DNA from: Macrostomum lignano
Taxonomy: Eukaryota
NCBI GenBank assembly: GCA_002269645.1
Contig: NIVC01001945.1
Coordinates: 62,001-126,000, forward strand
Reading direction: 5' to 3'
DNA length: 64,000 nucleotides
Under the pieces are notes generated by a model that was not told the origin of the DNA, did no database searches, and was given only the letters and a program-made list of their open reading frames with translations. Position numbers and translations under genes: made by a program. This document shows, one piece after another, positions 48,215 to 63,336 of the stretch (position 1 is the first letter of the stretch; every line of letters begins with the position of its first letter).

Positions 48215-48955
48215 ACTACGTAATGCGCAGATAAGTGTTGATTTTTAGGCAGATTTGACGCAAAAAACGCAAATTATACTACTATCTGAAAATGAAGTAA
48301 GTAGTATACAAAAACGCTATCCTAAGCGTGATATGACAATATGTAGTCGTAATAATCCATGTGCTCATATATGTACATTAATTCCATGTACATTAATCCC
48401 TATCTATCTCAAATTGTACATTAATTCCATGTACATTAATCCATATCTCAAATGTCTATCCCCAATTCTATATGTACACTTACATTAATCTACAGTGTCA
48501 TCCCCAGCGCGCGCGCACCAACATTACATGTACAATACTACATGTACACAGAGGTGAGAATTACTAATCTCATCTACTACCAAATGAGTCAACTAACAGT
48601 GTAGCGCACATCATGTATAAGTATTTACAATGAAGATATATTTACATTTAATCAGTAGCATATTACAGGAATCGAGACATGTACACCATCACCAGCAAAT
48701 AGAATATACAGAAAATTTTACATTGTTTTTCAATATTTTTCTCTTCATAAATGATTTTAAACAGGTTTGACATGCAAAATATGTACAATAGATTTTTACA
48801 TTGGCAATTTCGCCACACGCAATGCAAAAATGTTTTATGTACATTGAATTATATACAGCAAATAGATTCTGATAAATACAGCAGTATTACAATGCAACTT
48901 ATGTACAATAAATAGATTTTACTAATTTAATATTGCAAAATGTACATTGAATTGT
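48215..48955 (+). repeat. Left terminal inverted repeat of the Polinton
   Basis: Reverse complement of 62603-63336 with a few substitutions and one 9-bp indel. Confidence 0.92.
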
Positions 48956-49939
48956 CAGACAGATTTGAATAATAGTGGTCGGAGTCTATATGTACATCGA
49001 TAGCCTCTATACTCATATCCGCTACATACCCAAAAAATTAGGTATGTACATTTTCACCCTCGGAGACCGTAAGTTGAATATGCTGATAACTTATACAAAG
49101 TCACTTATAAAATACACATACTTTCATATAGAGGCGGGCCTGTACAAACTCTCGCCAAGCGATGGGGTGGAGGTTGCGTCATCCAAGCCTCTCCCCAAGT
49201 CAGAACCCAAATGCAGGACTGCGTTGAAGCAGTGCTTTATATTTCTATATTGACAGTGTGGAGGATACAAGACCTTTAATTGGTAATTATCAACTGCTAC
49301 TGCTGTACGGTATATCCTCACCCCCCCTCGAAACTCCTATACTGAATGTTGAATCACCCTTTAACTCGGACCATAGTCAAATTCAACCCTGTTCGAAAAC
49401 AGCCACCCCTCCGATGTTTACCAGACACAGCGCAGACCCCATAGCAAATCGAGCTAAATTTTAACACTCACCCCTGTTCTCTCTGTCCCCCCTTCTAAAT
49501 GCCAAGGAATTTCGACCCTCTCTCCATTTTCAGTGTACAGACAGATCTTTCCACAGCACAGACCATATATTAAACTCAAAACCCCTCTCTTCTCCGATTA
49601 CGTCATCCATGCCGCCCCAGATAGCAAGAAACCAACTTTTAATGCACACATCAACCCCCGCGAGCAAATCCGAGTCCGCCAACCTCTACCTGCATTGACA
49701 AACCCCAGCTGCATTTTTAAATGTACACAGCCTATGAATCAGTGTCTCCACCGCATGCAATTCTGATTTACTTTGATTCTAAACTTTGTAAATTGTATAA
49801 GTCACCCTTGCGTTATACTAGAAGTAGTGAAGTCCACATATTTAAATACGTGAGGCTATTCAATTCTGCCTCTCCGCCTCCCCTGCCTTCTCACTTCAAG
49901 CTTTCAGAATTGGTCTTTGAGACGGTCGGTTTAATCTGT

Positions 49940-51190
49940 TAGAAGCAGGAATGAATCATGCACTGACCTCTCCATACAAAGTAAAGTTGGAATTTCAGAC
50001 AAGAAATTTGGTTATTTTGAAAGCTAAATGACTAGAAATGCACATTTTTCATTAAAATGCAGCTTTTTACAGTTTTTTACGATTTTAACCTTAAAATGCA
50101 GACTTTGTTGATCAAAATCAGTGGTTTCATCACTAGAAACTATACATTCAACAGCTAATTTGTCCAAATGGCGCTTTCAACTTGACTTTAGACAGCTTTT
50201 AAGCAGGAATGAACCCCACACAAACATCCACAAGCCAGCCTAAAATCATCCAAAGACATGGCTATTGAAGCCTAATTGCTAGAAATGCGCATTTTTCATA
50301 AGAAAATACAAATTTTCACAGTTTTTATGCATTTTTAGGTTCAAATGCAGACTTTATTGATCAAAATCAGTAGTTTCATCACTGAAAACCATAATTTCAA
50401 CAGCTAATGTGTCCAAATGTCGTTTTTAACTTGACCTTAGACGGCTTCAAAGCAGGAATGAATCGCACACGAACATACACAAGCTAGCCCAAAATCATCC
50501 AAAGACGGCTGTTGAAGACTAAATTGCTAGAAATGAGCATTTTTTCATAAGAAAATACAAATTTTCACAGTTTTTACGCATTTTTACGTTAAAACGCAGA
50601 CTTTATTGATCAAAATCAGTAATTCATCACTAAAAACCACAATTTTAACACAAAATTATTACAAATGCTATAACTTCTGGCCACTCTGAGACAGCTTCGA
50701 AGCAGGAATTAATCACACATGGATTACACCAGCCAGTCCAATATCCACTGAAGCCAGGGTTTTTTAAAGCTGAATTGTTAGAATTGCTCATTCTTTCGTT
50801 TAATAAATGGCAATTTTCACAGTTTTATTATTTTCTAACGTTTAAATGCGAAATGTATTGGTCAAACTTAGTTGTTTAATCCCAAAAACCATAATTTCAA
50901 CAGCTAATTTGTCCAAATGCTGATTTCAAAGTTGGCAAGAAACAGCTTTCGAGCAGGAATGAGTCACACACTGATCTCTATATGCACACCCCGGCCCAAG
51001 TTGGAATTCCACCCAAGACATTTTAATGAAAGCTAAATTACTAGAAATTGCACATTTTCGTTTAAAAAAAGGTCAATTTTTCACAGTTTTACTCTTTTTA
51101 ACGTTCAAATGCAGACTTTATGGATCGAAATCTGCTATTTTATCAGCAGAAACCATAATTTTTACAACTTAATCGTCAAAAATGCTGTTT
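49940..51190. repeat. Five diverged ~250-bp tandem repeats inside the Polinton
   Basis: gcaggaat anchor at 49945, 50203, 50452, 50702, 50953. Confidence 0.85.
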
Positions 51191-52227
51191 CATCATTCAA
51201 ATAGGCATGTATATTGCCCAAGAAGCTGGGGAATATTCTATAGACACAGTAAAAATTGGGGCTAAAAACACAGTCTGCTATTAAACTTAGTTTTCAGCAT
51301 TCAATTACTAAATCATGCCATTGATGCTATTTTAAACGTTATTCTCAGTTCTGAAGCTCCCAACAGCCTCTTTTAGATGCATTGAATCGGTTTTGTTGCA
51401 TACTTTGCATGTTGAATCACCCTTCAATTCAACGATTCTCCGCTATACATTCTAGCCATATTCAAAATTCAACCCAGGACTATTAATGTTCGCCAATATG
51501 GAGAGAACAACACCTACCCCAGCCTCACCAAGGCAATTCTTTACTACCGCGTAAATGCCATAACTGACTCTCTGTCCCTATAACCCCAGGTCCATCCCTA
51601 AACATTACGTAAACAGAAGTAGAAAACTCTGTCTCTGATTTGGCTTGCGACAGGGGCTGTCACCTTTATTACTCTTTGATGGATATTTTGGATGATGGCA
51701 AGAGCTTTTCATCGACTATTACTCTTCCCCGAGCCTCTGTCAATCGGATGCTTTGCACACAAGCCCCATTTCACCCAGGTTATTAAATTGATACAGCGAT
51801 TTTTAACAACCATTTTCTCGCAGAGACCGGCGGGCCTTAAAAACCACAGAAGTTATCTTTCATATTTTTCATCTGTATTTAGCTATTATTGGTCCGCCAA
51901 GGTATTGTCTTTTGAATAAACACCGTTTTCTATCCAATTCAAGTCGAAAAGACATGCTGCAAGAGGAAGCTGTCATCTTCTTTGAGAGACTGTACTCTGG
52001 CGGAGCAGCAGTTTTCACTCCTGCGAGAATGCTGGTTGGGTGGCTCCGCTCAGATCCAATAAAATACAGCATGAGAAAAGAATTGGTGGGGTATTTTCGA
52101 CCCCCAACTTTTCTATACCAAATGTGGAACCGAGTGTACAATCGTACACTAATCTAGAAAATATAGACCCGGGAAAGAAAATCACGCACACCTCTCGTGC
52201 CCCTACCCCATCCTCCCTCTTGCGGGG

Positions 52228-52235
52228 TATATAAA
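52228..52235 (+). promoter_or_regulatory. Candidate TATA box of the polB gene
   Basis: TATATAAA about 165 bp upstream of ATG 52397 (acaATGg context), followed by a CAG/CAT-repeat leader. Confidence 0.5.
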
Positions 52236-52396
52236 GCGGGTGAGAGCTGCTGCAGCAGCATCAGCAAAAGCAGCAGCACAGCTAGCAGCAGAAGTCACAA
52301 CATCAGCAAACGGCAGCAGCATCAGAAACCGCAAGCATCAGCAGTCACAGTCGCAATCACAGCAGCCACAATCACACCAGCATCAGCAGCATCACA

Positions 52397-55024
52397 ATGG
52401 CATCGAAGCGTTCAGCCGCTGAAGCCGCCATTTCAACCTTGTGGGGACGAGCAGGCCCCTCACAACAGCAGCAGCACAAGGGCCGCAGGTACATCACGCC
52501 CAGAGAGAAGGCCACAGCATTCGCCAAGGAGTATGCGGCGGTAAGCAGCTACCAGATCAAGAAAAAGGACAGAGCGCTCAGAAGAAAGGTCGATCGGACG
52601 CTCAAGAGAACGCAGTCGGGTCGGAACGAGGGAGACGACATCACCTTGGAGGAGGTGCAGCATGCGCTGGACGAGTTGGACGGCGGAAAGGCGCCGGGAC
52701 CAGACAAAATCCACCCGAGGCTACTCAAGGAGCTGCCCACCGAGATGATCAAAGCGGTAGCCCAGCTGTTCCAACGCTCATGGGCGCACGCCGAAGTCCC
52801 ACAGAACTGGAGAACCGGCGAGATTGTGCCCCTGTTGAAGGAGAATCAGGTACCAGAGGCCATTGTGTCATACCGCCCGATATGTCTCACTGCGACGATT
52901 GGAAAGTGGCTGGAAAGAGTCCTGGCGAACCGTCTGAAGCACACGCTGGAAAACCAGAAACTGCTGACGGAGGCCCAAGCCGGATTTAGACAGGGCAGAA
53001 CAACCACGGACCAGGTGCTGAGCTTATGCCAGGAAATCAGCGACGGGTTTAACGATCGGAAACGGACCGTTCTGACCACCCTAGATTTCACCAAGGCGTA
53101 CGACAAGGTGTGGCGAACAGGGTTGCTCTGGAAGCTGCTGAAGAAAGGGATTGACGGCCGGATGATCAGATGGATACAAGCCTGGTTAGTCAATCGCACC
53201 AACTGGGTGCGGCTAGGCGAGGAGAAAGGCGCAGTGGTGTGTATGAAGCAGGGGCTTCCACAGGGGGCGGTACTGTCCCCCCTGCTGTTCCTGGTATTCA
53301 TCGACGACCTGCCCTCGGAATGCGGGACTACCGGCGTTCAATTCCGCATGTTCGCTGACGATGTAGCCCTATGGAGCACCGAAGAACGAGTAGGCAGAGC
53401 ATGTGCTAGAGTCCAGGAGGCACTACGGAAGGTGCACGAGTGGACCAGGGCCTGGTACCTCCCCTTGAACACTAAGAAGTGCGAGTCATGCGTCTATAGC
53501 AACAACCAAGCGGAGCGAGGAATGCGACTCGACTTGAGAATTGGAGATGACATCATCAGAACGACCTCGGCCCCCCGATACCTCGGGGTCACGGTGGACC
53601 AAAAGCTCACGTTCGCTGAACACGTGAGGATGCTATCGACGAAGGCCAGGGCGAGGACGCACCTGCTGAAGAAGCTGTGTTGCTTGGAGGGAGGTCTAAA
53701 CTTGGAGATTGCGAGGATGGCCTACCTGGCGCTAGTGAGACCGATTCTGGAGTACGCGGCCCCGGCATGGTACCCATGGCTGGCCAAGGTACACCTGGAG
53801 AAGCTGGAGAGGTGCCAGCGGGCAGCCGCCAGAGCCATTGCCGGAGTACTGGCCAGCACGCCGGTGGAAATGGTGCTGCAAGAAGCCGGGCTACCATCGC
53901 TGGAAAGCAGGCTGCAGTTCCAGACGCTGAAGACCTATGATAGCTACCGACGGCTACCAGCGGACTCGCCTAGGAATGAGATGGCCAATAGGCGCATGAA
54001 GAAGAGGCTGAAGAAGCCCAACTGGAGGCAGAAGTGTCGCGAGGACTGGACCAGACTGGCGTTACCGGAGCCGGAGCCGGAAGAGCGGAGCAGGCCAATC
54101 CCACCGTGGGTTCAAATCAGAACTAAGGTTGCCTTGGAGGAGCTCACGAACCGGCAGGCAACCGAGAAAGAGAACAAGGAAACCGCAGAGAGCTGGATCG
54201 CGAACAGAGACACCGACTACATCCTGTACACAGATGGGTCGGTGGGCAAGGACGGTAAAGGTGGAGCTGGTCTCATCATCTACCGGGGCAGCACGAAGCA
54301 GGGCGAAGCTCGAGGATCAGCGGGACAGGGATGCTCGTCCACGCAAGCCGAGATCAGGGCACTCCGTATGGCAATCGATTGGTTGGACGCGGCAGACTGG
54401 AAAACGGCCACCATCGTGAGTGACAGTCAAGCAGCGCTCCGGGCTTTCCAGGACAGATGGAAGGGTGAATGGCAGGACGTGAGGCATTGCTGGCTAAAGA
54501 TCGCGAAGTGGCCTGAAAGAACCCTGACGATGAAGTGGGTGGCAGGACATGTCGGAGTGGAAGGAAATGAGCTGGCGGACAGGCTGGCGGCAGAGGGACG
54601 AGGCGAGGAAGGTGACGTCTGGACAAGGAAAGCGGCCACTAACCACATTCGTAGAGCCCTGGAAGGCAGGATGGAGTGGAAGCACGAGAGGGCGAAGGAA
54701 ATCTACGCGAAGAAGCAGCCGGACTGGCGGAAGGAAGGAAAGTGGTGCAGAGCGGCCAGGCGCGATTTTGCCAGGTTCAGGACCGGACACCACACGGAGC
54801 TGGCGGAGTATGGTGCTCGGATTGGAGCCAGGGAGAGTGGAACGTGCCGGCTGTGCAATCTCGAGGAGGAAGGCACGGAACACGTACTGTTGAAGTGCCC
54901 AGTGATGGACAACATCAGGAGGAAGACCGGCATCACGGAGATGGGTGACTTATGCGCCATGCCCGAAGAATGCCGGGCCCTTTGGAACGAGTTCCGAGAA
55001 CGGGTTAGACTGAAGAGAGAGTAG
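52397..55024 (+). CDS. 875-aa chimeric ORF: ~27 aa of polB exon 1 fused to LINE reverse transcriptase-RNase H
   Basis: KAPGPD, YRPICL, QAGFR, LDFTKAYD, QGAVLSP, FADD; RNase H YTDGS, AEIRAL, SDSQAAL, WVAGHVG, NELADR; CRLC-x8-H-x4-C; no stops. Confidence 0.92.
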   Translation: MASKRSAAEAAISTLWGRAGPSQQQQHKGRRYITPREKATAFAKEYAAVSSYQIKKKDRALRRKVDRTLKRTQSGRNEGDDITLEEVQHALDELDGGKAPGPDKIHPRLLKELPTEMIKAVAQLFQRSWAHAEVPQNWRTGEIVPLLKENQVPEAIVSYRPICLTATIGKWLERVLANRLKHTLENQKLLTEAQAGFRQGRTTTDQVLSLCQEISDGFNDRKRTVLTTLDFTKAYDKVWRTGLLWKLLKKGIDGRMIRWIQAWLVNRTNWVRLGEEKGAVVCMKQGLPQGAVLSPLLFLVFIDDLPSECGTTGVQFRMFADDVALWSTEERVGRACARVQEALRKVHEWTRAWYLPLNTKKCESCVYSNNQAERGMRLDLRIGDDIIRTTSAPRYLGVTVDQKLTFAEHVRMLSTKARARTHLLKKLCCLEGGLNLEIARMAYLALVRPILEYAAPAWYPWLAKVHLEKLERCQRAAARAIAGVLASTPVEMVLQEAGLPSLESRLQFQTLKTYDSYRRLPADSPRNEMANRRMKKRLKKPNWRQKCREDWTRLALPEPEPEERSRPIPPWVQIRTKVALEELTNRQATEKENKETAESWIANRDTDYILYTDGSVGKDGKGGAGLIIYRGSTKQGEARGSAGQGCSSTQAEIRALRMAIDWLDAADWKTATIVSDSQAALRAFQDRWKGEWQDVRHCWLKIAKWPERTLTMKWVAGHVGVEGNELADRLAAEGRGEEGDVWTRKAATNHIRRALEGRMEWKHERAKEIYAKKQPDWRKEGKWCRAARRDFARFRTGHHTELAEYGARIGARESGTCRLCNLEEEGTEHVLLKCPVMDNIRRKTGITEMGDLCAMPEECRALWNEFRERVRLKRE

Positions 55025-58000
55025 GACCGTGGTACGGCAACGCCAACAACAACAACAACAACAGCAGCAGCAGCAACAACAGCCTCCGGCCGCAAAGAGA
55101 GGACGCCCACTAGGTGAGTCTCTGCGTGCGTAAAACTATGCTTTTAGCATTTGTAAAATCTGAATTCAGAAAAATAGGGCTGTATAATTGCTTTAGCATT
55201 TGTGTGATTAGCAAATTTTTTCGCTAGTTGAAATATGGGTTTTCTTTGAAAGCACAGCTTTTCATCTTTAGCATTCATTTTGGGTTAAAATTTCTGTAAT
55301 TGCTTTTCAGCTTTAGCATTTGTGTGATTTGCAAACTTTTCGCTTGTTGAAATATGGGCTTTCTTTGAAACCACAGCTGCTTTTCATCTTTAGCATTCAT
55401 TTTGGCTTAAAATTTCTGAATTTCCTCTTGACATAGATGTTGAAGTTGGATTTCTCAAATTCAGACCTGTTGAAATAACAGAGTTTTTGAGAATATCAGC
55501 AGCAGCAGCAGTATAGCCAGATAATACCTGTAGAGGATAGTCATAAAATTTCTGGGGTTATGTGACTAGAGAAGTAAAAACAGCAATCCTGCAGCGCGCG
55601 CGTGACTCAGCGGGGGGCGGGCAGGCGGCAGTGATAAAAATCAACCCCCGATTTTTGGGCTCAGCATGATGATGTAATCACCACAGCGGCAGGTATTCTA
55701 GCGGCGCAGTGATAAAATCACCCCCGATTTTTGGGCATGATGATGTAATCACCGCTGCAATTGTATGGGGTTTTGGCAGCAATAGCTGCTGCAGTGAGGG
55801 TTATTAATCAGACAGCTTTAAAAATCCAAAAGCGGCCGCGCGGTATTGTTGCTAGGTGTCAAGGAGGCACAATGGAGGCACGTGCTGATAGGGGGTTTTC
55901 TTAAATTTTACAATGGCTGCTGCGGCAGGATCTGTGTTATCAGGGGTCATCAATCAAACATTTTTGACAGCCTAAAGTTCGAAACGGGGGTCAATCAACC
56001 CCACATTTCTTTTGTTGCTACGTGTCGGAACGTGCCGAGTTGTGGTTTTTACAACTCACCGATTTTGTTGCTTGGGGTGGGGCGATAAAATTGCTGCTGC
56101 TGCAGGCAATCAATCAAAAAATTTTGACAGTTGTAAAATTCCAAGCGGTCAGAATTTTAGTCACCATGCGCATTTTATTGCAGATTTGGCTCAATTTCAA
56201 CCCCCGCCCCAGCCCGACACTGTCGAAGGCGATGGTAAGGAGTTGATTTTATTTCATGAGTCATACACCCACAATTCTAATTTCAAACCCTCAAATTTTT
56301 TCAGGCTTCATTGCGCGTCTTGGCGGGGCGAAAGCCCTGCCTAAATTTAGAGCTGCAGGACACGAATATGTGGTATCGTTCACAGCGGATATTGTCGATG
56401 TTCGAGACACATTCGCTAGGGTGATAACAGCTCTTTGTGTGGACCTTCAAGCAGATGATTTCGTCGCATCTAAGCTGACGGCGGACAACATGATGCTAGC
56501 CATCAACGTCCCGCCCGTCCGCCGCAGCCGCTTCACTGCAGAGCTTGTTTTCAAGCATATCAACAAGGTGCTGCAGTCGGACTCCAGCGTCTTGGGCAAC
56601 AACTTTAAATTGTTTTTGCTCAAGGCCTGGGTCCCGCGGGGCGGCTGCGGCAGCTTAGATGCGGCGGAGCGTCACATCCAGGCCAGGCATTCGACAGGCC
56701 GCAACTATATCGTCATTGCCAACCGCGATAAGCGGTGCCTCATTCGGGCGCTAGTGGTGGCCAAGGCCTTTGCCGACCTGGAGGCCAAGGCCATCACTAA
56801 GCAAACTTGGCGGACCATCAAGGCCGACTCCCCAATGCAGACGAAGCTGACTGGGGAGCTTCAGATTGCCGCCAATCCGTATTCGGTGAGTAAAAATGTT
56901 CTTGCGCATTTTAATTTGCATTTTTATTAATATACAAATGTTTTAGTCTTTATCAACCATTGCACAGGACGGGCCTTTCGGGGTTGATGTGCTCCCCCAA
57001 CTGCTGGCAGTTCTGAACGCCCAGTCGCCGGGCAGGGATTTCGGCGCCCGCGTGTACAGTGCTGAGGAGGGCAATACATGTGTGTACGCCCTGCCCGGCC
57101 GCGAAGTGCTGAATCTGCACCTAATTGGCGAACACTTTAACGCTGTTTGCAAAGTGCCGCCATTTTTCGGAGCTCGCCGCTATTGCGACCGCTGCCAGCA
57201 GCCGTATGATTGCAACTCTGCAGGGCACAAGTGCACCAACACCTGCCCTCAATGCAAAGTGCCCGGCACCGACTGCAAGAGCCTGCAGCGTGACTACAAG
57301 CGCTGCGCTGATTGTGGCCTCAAGTGCTACAATCAGCAGTGCTTCGAAAATCACCGCCGGAAAAACCGAGCCGGCAGGTCACGCTGCAGCTCAACCCGCG
57401 TCTGCCCCAAATGTGGATATGTAGAAGAGTTAAGAGTCGACCAAAAGGAGCCGGAGCACAAGTGCGGCCATGTCAAGTGCCCACTGTGTAAACAGTACGA
57501 CGAGGCCGGCTCGCATTTGTGCTTCGTCAAGGCTCCCAAAGTGAAAGCATCGACTATGCCGTACGTGTTCTACGATACGGAAACATACACGGACGAGGAG
57601 AAGCAGCATCACGTGCACCTGGTGACTGCCGTCACGTGCTGCGAGACCTGCTCCGGCCGGGCGTTTCCGCGCGAGACTTGCCGCCTCTGCAATGGCCTGC
57701 ATAGCGCCGCCAACTGTCTGACTGGCCGCGATCTGGGGGAGGAATTCTCCAATTGCGTCAGCCACTCAGACTGCGCCTGCCAAATGGCCGATTTTGTGGC
57801 TGTGGGCCCGGCCTCGCTGAATGCGTTTTTCGCCTGGCTGAGCACCACATTCCGAGGCGGCGCCATTGTTGTCGCGCACAATGCATCAGGCTACGATTCG
57901 TTTCTACTGCTTGGCGCTCTACTCAACGGCCTGGCCAAGAAGCGGCCACAAGTACTGTTCCAGGGCAGCCGGTTAATGAGCATGACGGTGGATAAATTGG

Positions 58001-61000
58001 TATTCAAAGATTCGTTAAATTTTATACCAATCCCGCTTGCGCAATTCCCAAAAGCGCTGGGGCTCGCTGACACAAAGCTGGCCAAGGGGACGTTTCCCCA
58101 CGAGTTCAACAAGCCGGCTAATTGGAACTACGTGGGCCCCTACCCGGCTATTGAATATTATGGCGGCAAAGCAAACAAGGACTATGACTCAATCTGTGCT
58201 TGGCTAGCCTCGCGACAGGGCGAGTTGTTCAACTTTAATCGGGAATATCTCGATTATTGTTTGAGCGACACAGTCCTGCTTCGCGAGGGCTGTATCAAGT
58301 ACAGGGCAATAATTGGTGAAATTTGCGACGGCCTGGAACCATTTGTACAGGCCAACACGATTGCCAGTTTGGCAATGGCCGTTTTCACCACCCGATTTAT
58401 GGAGCCCAACTCGGTCGGCGTGATTGCCCGGCAGGCCGACCAGCAATCGTTCAAGGCGCGCAAGTGGCTGACTTATTTGAATGCCACCGAATTTGGCGGG
58501 CGGCTGCGCACCTGCGACTCGACTGACGGCGAGGCTGTCATTCTTGGCCGCAAGGTGGATGGTTTTGATGAGGCGAGCAACACTGTCTTGCAGTTTCATG
58601 GCTGTTTCTACCATGGCTGCGAGCAGTGTATGCCTGATCAGGATGCTGTCCACCCACTCAAACGGCAGCCTCTGAGCCACATTCGCCACGAGACTGAGTG
58701 GTTTACTCGCGAGTTGGAGCGGCACAATTACAGTGTTCGTGTCATTTGGGAGCACGAATACGACACTGTATTGGCATCGCAGGCCGACTTTATCGCCGCA
58801 ACTGCACATCTGCGCGCTCCACTCAAGATGGAAGATGCTCTCTATGGCGGCCGCGTAGAGTGTTTTATCCCGCATGCTGTGGCCAGCGAGACTGAGACTC
58901 TCAAATATCGGGATGTGGTGAGTAGTGATACTACTGATATAGTAGAATATTTTGCAAAAATACAGTTTATGAAAATAATGTTTTATTTCAACTGGCAGGT
59001 CTCTCTGTACCCGACGGTGCAGTCAAAGGACCCGTACCCGATTGGCCACCCGGTGCAACATCCGACGCCGCAAGTGCTAGATTCTGACGCGCTGGCTAGT
59101 TACTTTGGTATTGCCAAAGTGACTGTATTGCCGCCGTCAGATTTACATATTCCGCTGCTGCCGTACAGAGTTCAAAAGAGTTCAAAAGTGCAAAAGAAGC
59201 TCTTTTTTGGGCTTTGCCGCACCTGTATGGAGCAGCAGTGTGGCGACGATTGTGACCACTCAGATGAGGAGCGGGCGCTGACTGGCACCTGGGCAACGCC
59301 GGAGCTGCGGAAGGCCTTCCAGTTGGGCTACCGACTGCAGGTGGTGCACGCGCTGGCCTACTGGACAGAGAAGCGGACCGGCCTGTTCAGTGACTATGTT
59401 AGCACCTTCCTCAAGCTGAAGGCTGAGTCGAGCGGCTCCCCCGGCATGTCGGATGAAGACAAGGCCGCCTACATTGCCGATTTCTTTGCAAAGGAGGGCG
59501 TCACGCTGGACAAGGTCGAGCCCAACCCAGGACTTCGCTTTGTAGCGAAAATCTTTTTGAATTCGTAAGTAATTATAAATTCTGTTTTTAAACGATTTCT
59601 TCTACTAACAGTAGCACTTCTTTTCACAACACACAGGCTCTGGGGCAAATTTTGTCAGCGTGACGACCTGACATCGACAGAAATAGTATCCAGCTACGAG
59701 GACTGGCTCGCCCGGCTGACCGACCCCAACCTCAAAGTCAAGGCCTGCGAACCGATTGGCAGCGAGTTTATGCTGCTAGAGTACCGGCACCGCTACTTTA
59801 ATCAGCGGCCCTTCCGGTACTCTAATGTGCCAATCGGGGTTTTTACAACCACGCAGGCCCGGCTGCGCCTGTACGAGGCCTTGGAGGGGCTCGGCGAACG
59901 GGCCATTTACTGCGACACTGACTCGTAAGTAATGCATTTGATGTAACCGCCCTTGTCGCCTGTCCGCTCCGTAGAGAGACGAACGCATGGCTAGAGGGGG
60001 CAATGACCGTAGGCTGCCTATGACCGGGCAATGACCTGACGGACCTCCAGCACCAGACTGTCCCGCCCACATGATTAGTAGCTTTGGTAGCGCTTCGTGA
60101 CCAGAGGGCCAAGGACCCACATGGACCCCACCTGTAGCCAAGGTGCAATAGTTGGTCACTCGGTCATGGTATGACCGAGTGGCTGCCACCACTCTATGTG
60201 ACCTGGCGCACCTGGATCTTTCTACCAGACCTCTCGAGGCTAGAGCCCCGCCTGGATTGGTTACCAGGGGATTTAGGCTAACAGGGGAGACGCATGCAGC
60301 CGAGTACAGGGACTCTGCTTGGGGCATGATCGGGAACTCTGGGCTCAATCCTGGAGGATTTCTCAGCAGGGGATCCTTTGTGGCTGTGAGCGAGGCTGAC
60401 TTGCGACTTTGATTACTAAGAGTAGTATGAGGCGAACATGTACTGTCTACAGTTTAGATTGCTCAGGGCGAAGGGACGCGTTAGCATGGGGTTGCAACCT
60501 TCCTACTGCCATTCTGTGCCAAGACTCGCTAATCCCTCTACTGCACGCACACGCGGCCCCGCAGCACGCACTCACAGGCGGGCTTTGCACGGGGAGAGGC
60601 CATTAGCTTACCCAAACTTCCTTATGCTTTGCCACCCCGGGAGAAAGGCTTAGCAAGCCATGAGTGAAATGATGGTGAAAGATTGAATAATGATGAAGTT
60701 AGTTAATAGTTAATAATTAGGCCCTTAGGCAAATAAGCAGGCAATTAGGCGGCTTCACTATTGAGTAAAATACAGCAAAAGATACGGTATCACAATTGGC
60801 TCAGCTCTCTAATCAGACAATGGAAAATAGGCAAACCCCGGATAAGCAAAGGCAATTAGAGCACAAATTAGTAGCAGGAACTTACCGGCAGCTGCACAGA
60901 GAGTGAGAGAGACGGAGTGACCGAGGGCGGCTGTAGGCTGCAGTCAGGCAGACGGTGAAGCGGCGATGCGCTGGAGCGACGAGGCGCTGATGTAGATCAG

Positions 61001-62583
61001 GCGATGCTGATGATGCTGGGCGGTATCAGACCGCTGGCCGATAGGCGAGCTCACTTGGGGAGCTAAGGATAACTTGGCGGTAACAGACCGCGGACCGGCA
61101 GGGATTCGTCTTATAGACGAATGGGTCAGAACTCAATCTGACAGCAAGTCCAAAGAAGGACGAGGAGAGGAACAGAGATAAACCCAGTTGAGTATTCTCA
61201 TGCCGAAATCGCTTCCTTTTATAGACCTCACAGCCGCCTCCTCAAGGTCGTTACCATGGCTCCCTCTCTCTGATTGGCTGCCGGCAGAATGACGTCAGAA
61301 TGAGTCATGATGAGAAGCATGAGACCGGCATAGCAACATGAGAAATCGGGAAATTGCGCAATCCGGAGGTGGGGTGGGGGGATAATTGGCGCAGCGGGTG
61401 GTCGCGAAAGTGTTGCGCAAGCAAACATTGAGAACAATAGGGCTGGGGTCGAGAACAAAGGAATTGGAAATCGGGGATAATTGGGGAAAACTGAGAACAA
61501 TGGAAAAGTAAACATTGGAGAAAAGGTGATAATTAGGTGCGAAAACGAGAACAAAAGAAAGAGAAAATCGGAGAAAATGTGATAATTGGTGGGGGTCGAG
61601 AGAACAAAAGAAGCAAAAACGAGAACAATAGAAGCGGAGGTGGGGTGGGTGTCACATGAGAAATTTGGGAAGGAGAACAATAGCGTGAGAAAAGGTTGCG
61701 CAAGAGAGGGGGATGAGTCATCGATGAGTCACCGAGGGGGAGAAGGGGTCACACGACTTGCGTCACCGTTTGGGAGTTTGAGAGGGGATGGGGAGACGGT
61801 GAGCACACAAAGTACTGTAAGTAGACACAGGGAAAGAGGGGACAGCGCAGGAAAAGAGTGCAGAGGGAGACAAAAAAAGAGAGGAGATAGAGAAAGTACA
61901 GGAAGAATAGGGCGGAAACAGAAGAGATAGGGTAGAGGGGGAGGTACAAAAAGGGGTAGGGGCTCCGGAAAGGCAGGTGTGGCGGCAGGAGAGACGGGAC
62001 CAAGGCAGTAGGAGGGGGGGCAGCAGAGCGGGAGTCTCCAGGCCCGGTCGGAGACCTGGCCGAGTCTCGACAGCTCTGTGCAGAGGGTGCACGGGATAGG
62101 AGGCACTTTCGAAAAAGTTCCCATGCCCTATCCCGCGACCAGAGCGTGGTTACATCACATTGATAAATTCTTTTAGAATTGAATAGTTGGCATGTGGAAC
62201 TAATTCCACAAGAGGGCCAATGGGAGCCGCCCCATGGCACGAGCCTCGGAATGTGGACCGACGAGGTACCCGCAGGCAGCCGGATGACCGACTTTGTAAG
62301 TGGAGGGCCCAAGCTCTACACTTACATTGTCGAGGATGCTGCTGGTGTCCGGAGTCAGGTCCTGAAATGCAAGGGCATCCGCCTGACTCCGGAGATTCGG
62401 GAACGCAGCGACGAATTGCGCAGTGCCCTACTACACGGCGGCTCCCTGAAACTGCCGCAGTTTCAGTTCAGGCGCGACAAGGCGTCTTGCACCATACACA
62501 CTGTTAGTATGGACAAGACGTTTCAGCGCGTCCTGACGAAACGCGTGTACGGGACCTTCAGCAGGCCTTATGGCTATAAATAA
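52397..62583 (+). CDS. polB: Protein-primed family B DNA polymerase (pPolB), 6 exons, about 1300 aa when reconstructed; exon 1 disrupted by a LINE
   Basis: Exons 52397-52476+55073-55113, 56305-56885, 56968-58917, 58999-59564, 59637-59924, ~62187-62583. ExoI FYDTET, ExoII AHNASGYD, ExoIII YCLSDT, motif A DV|VSLYP, motif B KIFLNS|LWGKF, motif C YCDTDS, C-terminal GPKLY and KCKG. Exon 1 assignment and the last acceptor are less certain. Confidence 0.88.
52477..55058 (+). mobile_element. 5'-truncated non-LTR retrotransposon (I-group-like: RT + RNase H + CCHC), (CAA)n tail
   Basis: 14-bp TSD caacagcagcagca at 52463-52476 and 55059-55072; (CAA)5 tail at 55044-55058; no endonuclease domain. Confidence 0.88.
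56305..56885 (+). CDS. polB: pPolB exon 2, N-terminal region with NRDKRCLIRAL (vOTU-like Cys motif)
   Basis: ttttcag acceptor, gtgagt donor, phase 0 into exon 3. Confidence 0.75.
56968..59924 (+). CDS. polB: pPolB exons 3-5: Zn-finger cluster, exonuclease, VSR-like nuclease insert, polymerase motifs A-C
   Basis: 859-aa ORF 56989-59568 plus exon 59637-59924; VDGFDEASNTVLQFHGCFYHGC insert. Confidence 0.93.
59939..62157 (-). mobile_element. Probable solo LTR (2219 bp) in the last polB intron
   Basis: TG...CA ends with 10-bp inverted repeat TGATGTAACC/GGTTACATCA; 4-bp TSD CATT at 59935-59938 and 62158-62161; minus-strand TATAAAA at ~61217-61223 with nearby CCAAT, TGACGTCA and TGAGTCA; no convincing ORF. 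Confidence 0.7.
62187..62583 (+). CDS. polB: pPolB last exon (C-terminal palm/thumb region)
   Basis: WEPPHGTSLGMWTDE...FVSGGPKLYTY...KCKGI...KRV...SRPYGY typical of pPolB C-termini; exact acceptor unresolved. Confidence 0.85.
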
Positions 62584-62602
62584 TGTAATCCAATTATAAC
62601 TA

Positions 62603-63336
62603 ACAATTCAATGTACATTTTGCAATATTAAAATCTATTTATTGTACATAATTTGCATTGTAATACTGCTGTATTTATCAGAATCTATTTGCTGTATATA
62701 ATTCAATGTACATAAAACATTTTTGCATTGCGTGTGGCGAAATTGCCAATGTAAAAATCTATTGTACATATTTTGCATGTCAAACCTGTTTAAAATCATT
62801 TATGAAGAGAAAAATATTGAAAAACAATGTAAAATTTTCTGTATATTCTATTTGCTGGTGATGCTGTACATGTCTCGATTCCTGTAATATGCTACTGATT
62901 AAATGTAAATATATCTTCATTGTAAATACTTATACATGATGTGCGCTACACTGTTAGTTGACTCATTTGGTAGTAGATGAGATTAGTAATTCTCACCTCT
63001 GTGTACATGTAGTATTGTACATGTAATGTTGGTGCGCGCGCGCTGGGGATGACACTGTAGATTAATGTAAGTGTACATATAGAATTGGGGATAGACAATT
63101 TGAGATAGGGATTAATGTACATGGAATTAATGTACAATTTGAGATATATAGGGATTAATGTACATGGAATTAATGTACATATATGAGCACATGGATTATT
63201 ACGACTACATATTGCCATATCACGCTTAGGATAGCGTTTTTGTATACTACTTACTTCATTTTCAGATAGTAGTATAATTTGCGTTTTTTGCGTCAAATCT
63301 GCCTAAAAATCAACACTTATCTGCGCATTACGTAGT
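62603..63336 (-). repeat. Right terminal inverted repeat of the Polinton
   Basis: Mirror of 48215-48955. Confidence 0.92.

Follow-up and report, generated by a model that had tools for sequence, protein, structure and literature searches.

The DNA analysed here is a 64,000-nt stretch of the Macrostomum lignano genome (contig NIVC01001945.1), hereafter the window, and labels such as C206, C221 and C2286 designate contigs of the genome assembly that was searched. Towards its right end lies a DNA element whose polB gene is interrupted in exon 1 by a LINE, with the following features in window coordinates.

48215..63336, + strand: Polinton-like pPolB-only DNA element, ends ACTACG...CGTAGT, 6-bp target-site duplication (TSD) GCGGAG
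48215..48970, + strand: left terminal inverted repeat (TIR), arms 48215-48453, 48450-48933 and 48926-48970
52228..52236, + strand: TATA box TATATAAAG, conserved in other copies of the element
52397..52476, + strand: 5' part of polB exon 1, with the ATG, a short N-terminus and the first part of the poly-Gln tract (an insertion hotspot)
52397..55024, + strand: 875-aa fusion ORF in which 26 aa from polB exon 1 precede the RT-RNase H of the LINE (ORF scan, Pfam)
52462..52476, + strand: left TSD of the LINE, 14-15 bp
52474..55061, + strand: 5'-truncated Ingi-like LINE (RT, RNase H, CCHC, (CAA)6 tail)
52865..53596, + strand: reverse transcriptase domain, FADD at 53351 (aa 319)
54212..54598, + strand: RNase H domain, D613, E652, D676 and D728 all present
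55058..55072, + strand: right TSD of the LINE
55073..55119, + strand: rest of polB exon 1 on the 3' side, with its GTGAGT donor (GT at 55114)
56184..62583, + strand: the six remaining polB exons, boundaries approximate, DNA_pol_B_2
59939..62157, strand not assigned: a further, separate insertion of 2.2 kb within the last intron of polB (inverted ends of 10 bp, duplication of 4 bp), missing from other copies
62588..63336, - strand: right TIR

The host element, which measures ~9.5 kb without inserts, is bounded by TIRs of ~750 bp that are 98-99% complementary. Its ends and 6-bp TSD recur in all four copies with both ends present, which rules out a duplication of 8 bp; for Polinton/Maverick elements, the part of bioRxiv 10.1101/2023.08.22.554363 available to us gives TIRs of 100-1500 bp and TSDs of 5-8 bp. 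The only gene recognised is an intron-split pPolB (DNA_pol_B_2, E 2.3e-27), which appears spliced in run X1 (one GT..AG joint, 56233 to 56304) and of whose downstream exons five were checked individually, each with a stop-free frame. Exon 1 most probably belongs to this gene, since the GTGAGT donor is kept in 17 of 17 uninterrupted ATG-bearing copies and the exon (118-160 nt) is always 1 mod 3 in length. Another 41 ORFs of the window element, with lengths from 60-75 aa upwards, gave no integrase (rve) or other Pfam gene (this search could miss a gene divided among very short exons), no packaging ATPase, protease or capsid was found in its ORFs, and there was no Pox_A32 match among the 150 of 375 candidates scored across the genome. 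The name Polinton, used in the earlier note, therefore fits the pPolB and not the remainder of the gene set: the element works like a non-autonomous Polinton yet falls outside that group by gene content.

Several observations on the surroundings and relatives of this element deserve mention. Its non-coding left arm contains ~249-bp tandem repeats (window 50017-51200), and elsewhere in the window a 23-bp satellite, with 17-18-bp and other arrays interspersed, occupies ~29 kb (5132-34015). One pPolB element, on C1159, is nested inside a copy of the same 2.2-kb element that sits in the last polB intron of the window, that is, the two nest in each other. Many elements with the same TIRs, among them those on C903, C362, C2455, C125, C3637, C2274 and C4430, are near-perfect one-arm palindromes of 6-10 kb (in tandem on C362), resembling fold-back products of strand-displacement replication, and these palindromic copies suggest that the pPolB-only element may replicate itself. 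A second pPolB family (C24, C173, C493; 66-67% identity, at least 60 matches) is ~9 kb long, intron-split, flanked by a 6-bp TSD, ends in ACTACT...AGTAGT and has one extra 166-aa ORF with no Pfam match; it was rejected as an autonomous helper, being also of ~9 kb and giving no integrase match in the 23 ORFs of one copy. One pPolB-element copy, on C157, has a dUTPase ORF (PF00692, E 1.6e-30) in its left arm (L104:914-1435), and two Rac/Rho-like GTPase ORFs, recognised by eye, lie between two short TIR-like matches at C1849:153000-158600.

The earlier note had described a 5'-truncated LINE inside the poly-Gln tract of polB exon 1, in frame with the polB ATG behind a TATA box, and this description stands. 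The fusion ORF starts at the first ATG downstream of the TATA box and runs through its 875 codons uninterrupted by a stop, with the FADD motif and the four RNase H acidic residues in place. Pfam recognises RVT_1 (aa 157-400), RNase_H (aa 606-734, E 2.3e-16) and a weak zf-RVT (CCHC, aa 808-838) and finds no endonuclease domain in the 875 aa, so that an RT product would be endonuclease-less, as had been claimed. The window LINE is likewise devoid of a ribozyme-like leader, 2A, PHD-like fingers and APE. Its TSD, previously given as 14 bp, measures 14-15 bp (the longest duplication is 15 bp, one base of which possibly belongs to the (CAA)n tail), and at its 5' junction three nucleotides, GCA, are shared as microhomology with the LINE in full-length form.

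That the fusion is an assembly artefact, two repeats having been joined through the CAG tract, is barely credible. The assembly is indeed repeat-rich and partly duplicated, and sister LINE copies show single-base indels, but the window LINE has a TSD on both flanks, its microhomology is typical of 5' truncation, and a 98-nt contig from a probable DNA run equals 52406-52503 with zero differences (30 nt of it on the LINE side, the bridging rule being 31 nt). As for transcripts, none of the contigs listed for the presumed-RNA runs X1, X2, X3, X6 and X8, which can show presence only, bridges the 5' junction; the X2 contig at the LINE start continues into parental full-length sequence, and the X1 exon-1 contig derives from an uninterrupted copy of the polB element.

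The polB gene of this copy is likely knocked out, and the fusion product is likely a dead end, 2A and endonuclease having been lost; an RT that lacks its endonuclease would have no means of spreading. Since the fusion-ORF stop lies 89 nt upstream of the exon-1 donor and further introns follow downstream, the fusion mRNA would moreover probably be a target of nonsense-mediated decay. These points bear on the idea that an RT-RNase H gene has been captured by the polB element, which expresses and can carry it, as raised in the earlier note, or that the host keeps this gene. In its favour, the ORF is intact behind a TATA box and a first ATG, the TIRs are well matched, the polB family appears spliced in X1, and one different exon-1 LINE fragment occurs in two rearranged element copies (C157, C513), which indicates that cargo can be duplicated. 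Against this, the window junction occurs once in the assembly: a search for other copies with the same LINE at the same site finds three matches extending as far 5' as the window LINE, only one of which has a polB flank. Furthermore, nine other, independent and unrelated insertions occupy the same exon-1 site, the stop precedes the splice donor, and the LINE has only three private nucleotides, which suffice to explain why its ORF is intact. One of these changes Asp to Val beside RT domain 1, although it may be an assembly error. A captured gene would be marked by several copies sharing a junction or by purifying selection; there is one junction, and private codons number 2 of 850 (one non-synonymous), a divergence too low for dN/dS and without power, so the intact ORF reflects youth and says nothing on selection. 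Capture is in our judgement quite improbable, and the window ORF by itself is ordinary: real, yet young and likely neutral.

Chance is also what the reading frame indicates. The figure of one in three for an in-frame fusion, put forward in the earlier note, is correct: 4 of 14 truncated copies are in the Gln frame (1/5 at polB exon 1, 2/6 elsewhere in the window family and 1/3 in two other families), as chance predicts, which further weakens the case for capture.

The place of insertion, on the other hand, is not ordinary. The exon-1 poly-Gln tract is readable in at least 33 copies of the host element (exon-1 copy counts being lower bounds), of which 18 are uninterrupted and 15 interrupted by 10 distinct insertions. 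All 10 carry a simple-repeat tail on the downstream side and are therefore sense-oriented. Among them are a LINE of another family in C2286, full-length, in frame and giving a 1507-aa ORF from the polB ATG, a nest of 11.6 kb, truncated LINEs and, from the window LINE's own family, a bipartite derivative; four further copies of the host element have LINEs in the 5' UTR. The C1263 insert was considered as a ribozyme mini-element and excluded, since it corresponds to the 3' end of the LINE family on C221. Insertions amount to ~1 event per 130 nt of tract versus at most 10 others in 54.5 kb of aligned element, a rough estimate from 7 non-randomly chosen copies that makes the tract roughly 40-fold denser than the rest. 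The exon of one mobile element thus serves as a recurring niche for other mobile elements.

The family of the window LINE shows the same preference, 16 of the 18 3' ends found running on into CAG/CAA. Its full-length relatives on C206 and C255 each have one long ORF, broken by two or three indels, with the order leader, 2A-like motif (GDVEKNPGP in both, identified by motif), PHD-like fingers, APE, RT and RNase H; each adjoins a poly-Gln run in frame, and neither has an in-frame ATG before 2A. The borrowing of a promoter and start codon proposed in the earlier note suits these full-length parents much better than the truncated window copy. The family also has a bipartite non-autonomous derivative, made of its 5' and 3' ends, in five copies (L041-L045). 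The family belongs to a guild of Ingi-like, single-ORF LINEs with a 2A-like peptide. Its features of the Ingi clade are a single ORF with APE, RT and RNase H and no ORF1 (seen also in the intact relatives of C2286 and C221), a 2A-like GD[V/I]ExNPGP and the bipartite derivative. The label Ingi-like is given on domain order and motifs; an APE tree built without named references has no usable segment in 17 of 24 family rows and 9 of 17 branches open, and leaves monophyly largely undecided. The Vingi clade was excluded by the RNase_H match cited above, since RNase H is described as present in Ingi and lacking in Vingi in the available part of PMC13708176.

How general is the coupling between poly-Gln and frame? 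A genome-wide pattern search returned 122 2A motifs (control 0), 100 of which were retrieved and fall into 32 families. Among these 100 copies, 55 carry a CAG/CAA run no more than 300 nt upstream of 2A, and 40 of them are in phase 0, seven in phase 1 and eight in phase 2. By family, phase 0 is modal in 15 of 23, with two more ties (binomial P 0.002 if families are independent, which overstates the case because LINE families are related); 18 families have an in-phase copy, 5 of the 23 only out-of-phase copies, and 9 of the 32 no CAG run. An antisense control (14 copies with (YTG)3) was left out, being confounded by the Leu codons of 2A. The in-phase leaders are free of stops in 39 of 40 cases. 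In 18 family representatives, picked without regard to stops, the whole leaders, 1276 codons in all, contain no stop, against 24 and 53 in the two other frames and 38 when shuffled. The leaders, that of the C221 element included, form 11 groups without blastn links between them, and protein identity is only 32% between two LINE families that were compared. One of the groups consists of six alignable families; here the codon phase in which conserved DNA blocks are read differs, and every leader nevertheless ends in the 2A phase, from which it appears that the open phase, rather than a peptide, has been conserved. An independent case surfaced through a protein search: on C221, the poly-Gln exon of a host gene resembling Bod1/Shg1 (PF05205) reads in frame into an intact LINE, with 1581 codons open, and two uninterrupted copies of this gene exist elsewhere in the genome.

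The main rival to translation from a host ATG accepts the same hotspot and the same by-product, and holds that the LINEs start translation themselves, from their own Met or a non-AUG codon near a ribozyme-cut 5' end, the Gln phase being inherited from CAG annealing. Own in-frame Mets before 2A exist in 15 of the 18 representatives (the three exceptions include the window LINE family), and an IRES role has been suggested for the R2 ribozyme in the accessible text of PMC3414825. Open leaders also occur where no CAG target does: in three families used as control, leaders are stop-free in the 2A frame, although two of these families are stop-poor in all frames and the third has one copy with a stop, and among metagenomic relatives (2A in 14 of 21 loci) 13 of the 14 have at least 86 open codons before 2A, most with no CAG run. 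Long open leaders may thus be general to 2A LINEs, CAG target or not. Seven of these relatives have an upstream CAG/CAA run, five in phase and three in phase and open, but with short runs and collapsed contigs these phase data seem a weak hint only. An upstream in-frame Met lies within the 900 nt examined in only nine of the 40 in-phase copies, and many copies are in satellites. What self-initiation does not readily explain is why the leaders should be open before any Met of their own: in that part, the 18 representatives have 0 stops in 707 codons (11 and 20 in the other frames, 18.3 when shuffled), and within the first 75 nt 0 stops versus 8 and 13. Nor does it account well for the compensated frame changes in the six-family group, for leader lengths that take 14 distinct values between 138 and 270 nt, every one a multiple of three, or for the lack of a stop in leaders of 2A LINEs when the R2 ribozyme keeps its stop codon in 18 of 19 Drosophila elements (in the part of PMC3414825 available). 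We regard self-initiation as unlikely, although it deserves to be taken seriously.

An HDV-like descriptor matches 10 of 18 leaders (1.75 in shuffles) and also the full-length window-family leader, a predicted fold in each case. In three families, the predicted P1 helix would pair 7/7 with the CAG target itself (a count with no shuffled control), a pairing that would set the phase with no need for translation and so favours self-initiation. Rfam RF00094 scores 30 bits on the bipartite derivative, below the gathering score of 50, and no Rfam ribozyme was found in 18 other leader loci. In autonomous copies of the window family (5' ends L052 and L053), two perfect 7-bp hairpins spanning 38 nt break the predicted P1 strand; the non-coding derivative has an unbroken 7-bp P1, and its L3/P1.1 pair differs by a compensatory change. 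The coding element, with P1 interrupted, could therefore self-cleave more weakly.

Taken together, these findings lead us to prefer a reading with three parts, to which we assign a probability of about 0.65: (i) the window ORF is a dead end produced by chance, (ii) polB exon 1 is an insertion hotspot and (iii) the full-length LINEs of the guild sit in the Gln frame and are predicted to be translated from a host ATG and released by 2A. LINEs sit in sense in CAG/CAA runs, and their full-length copies keep the Gln frame through a stop-free leader into 2A and on through PHD-like fingers, APE, RT and RNase H. Host Pol II would transcribe into the LINE, and ribosomes starting at the host ATG would cross the poly-Gln and the leader and skip at 2A. 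The HDV-like leader fold would cut some of the co-transcripts to give template RNA, whose retained CAG repeat could anneal to a new target and keep the phase, much as 28S sequence has been proposed to do for R2. Truncated copies would lose leader, 2A and APE, and with their frame set by microhomology one in three would land in frame. Full-length 2A LINE fusions would also be exposed to nonsense-mediated decay, with their stop inside an internal exon.

A bolder version of this preferred reading, for which we would give even odds, is that at least 18 Ingi-like families are natural 2A gene traps. Their APE would target polyGln codons, in sense and in frame, and they would dispense with a promoter and start codon of their own, with 2A freeing the protein and a CAG-pairing HDV-like fold freeing the template. 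Exon 1 of pPolB, with its TATA box and an ATG ~25 codons upstream, would then be a replenished safe harbour comparable to rDNA for R2. The accessible part of PMC3894237 names two open questions, the reason for 2A in LINEs with a single ORF and the way in which translation of that ORF begins, and this genome offers a direct and testable answer: landing in frame in poly-Gln, with release by 2A. If true, it would also mean APE-type endonucleases with a natural preference for CAG/CAA runs.

The titles and abstract openings of the full-text literature searched include no poly-Gln-targeting, frame-coupled LINEs and no pPolB-only elements; most subscription journals, Repbase Reports and supplements lie outside this scope, and a family-level note on CAG targeting could exist. 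The closest known counterparts are those of the Ingi clade (Ingi, L1Tc, Ingi-1_AC, with RIME/NARTc-type derivatives), which share with the guild a single ORF, an N-terminal 2A-like motif, PHD-like fingers before APE, RT and RNase H, a predicted HDV-like 5' fold and a bipartite non-coding derivative. To judge from the portions of the sources available, Ingi and further LINEs with a single ORF are known to have 2A-like peptides, with PHD domains ahead of APE (PMC3708506), and HDV-like ribozymes and bipartite derivatives have been described for Ingi (PMC5786205; PMC3414825). The guild differs in preferring CAG/CAA runs in sense, in a leader whose Gln frame is open from its very first base and in the role envisaged for 2A, which, in the excerpts at hand, is proposed to be down-regulation of ORF2 (PMC3894237; bioRxiv 10.64898/2026.06.17.732966), not release from a host N-terminus. 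With R2 of 28S rDNA, the guild has in common target-specific insertion in a transcribed repeat and, as predicted for the guild, co-transcription and an HDV-like ribozyme, and for R2 an upstream cut in the target sequence has been postulated to yield uniform 5' junctions by annealing (both according to the accessible text of PMC3774820 and PMC3414825). However, R2 has a restriction-like endonuclease, a non-coding Pol I target and a conserved ribozyme stop, whereas the guild has APE, a target that is possibly a Pol II coding exon and a stop-free leader. The host element, for its part, shares pPolB, long TIRs and a 6-bp TSD with Polinton/Maverick, from which it departs by its small size, the spliceosomal introns in polB and a gene set in which integrase, ATPase, protease and capsid were not found. 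Insertion into simple repeats is a trait shared with microsatellite-targeting non-LTR families such as Waldo, Mino and Dong (Kojima and Fujiwara in 2004 reportedly treated families of this kind); we know of none in which the reading frame is coupled to the repeat. A further parallel is man-made: in engineered T2A gene-trap and knock-in cassettes, insertion is in frame into a coding exon and 2A separates the products, and the same logic would here be used by a natural selfish element.
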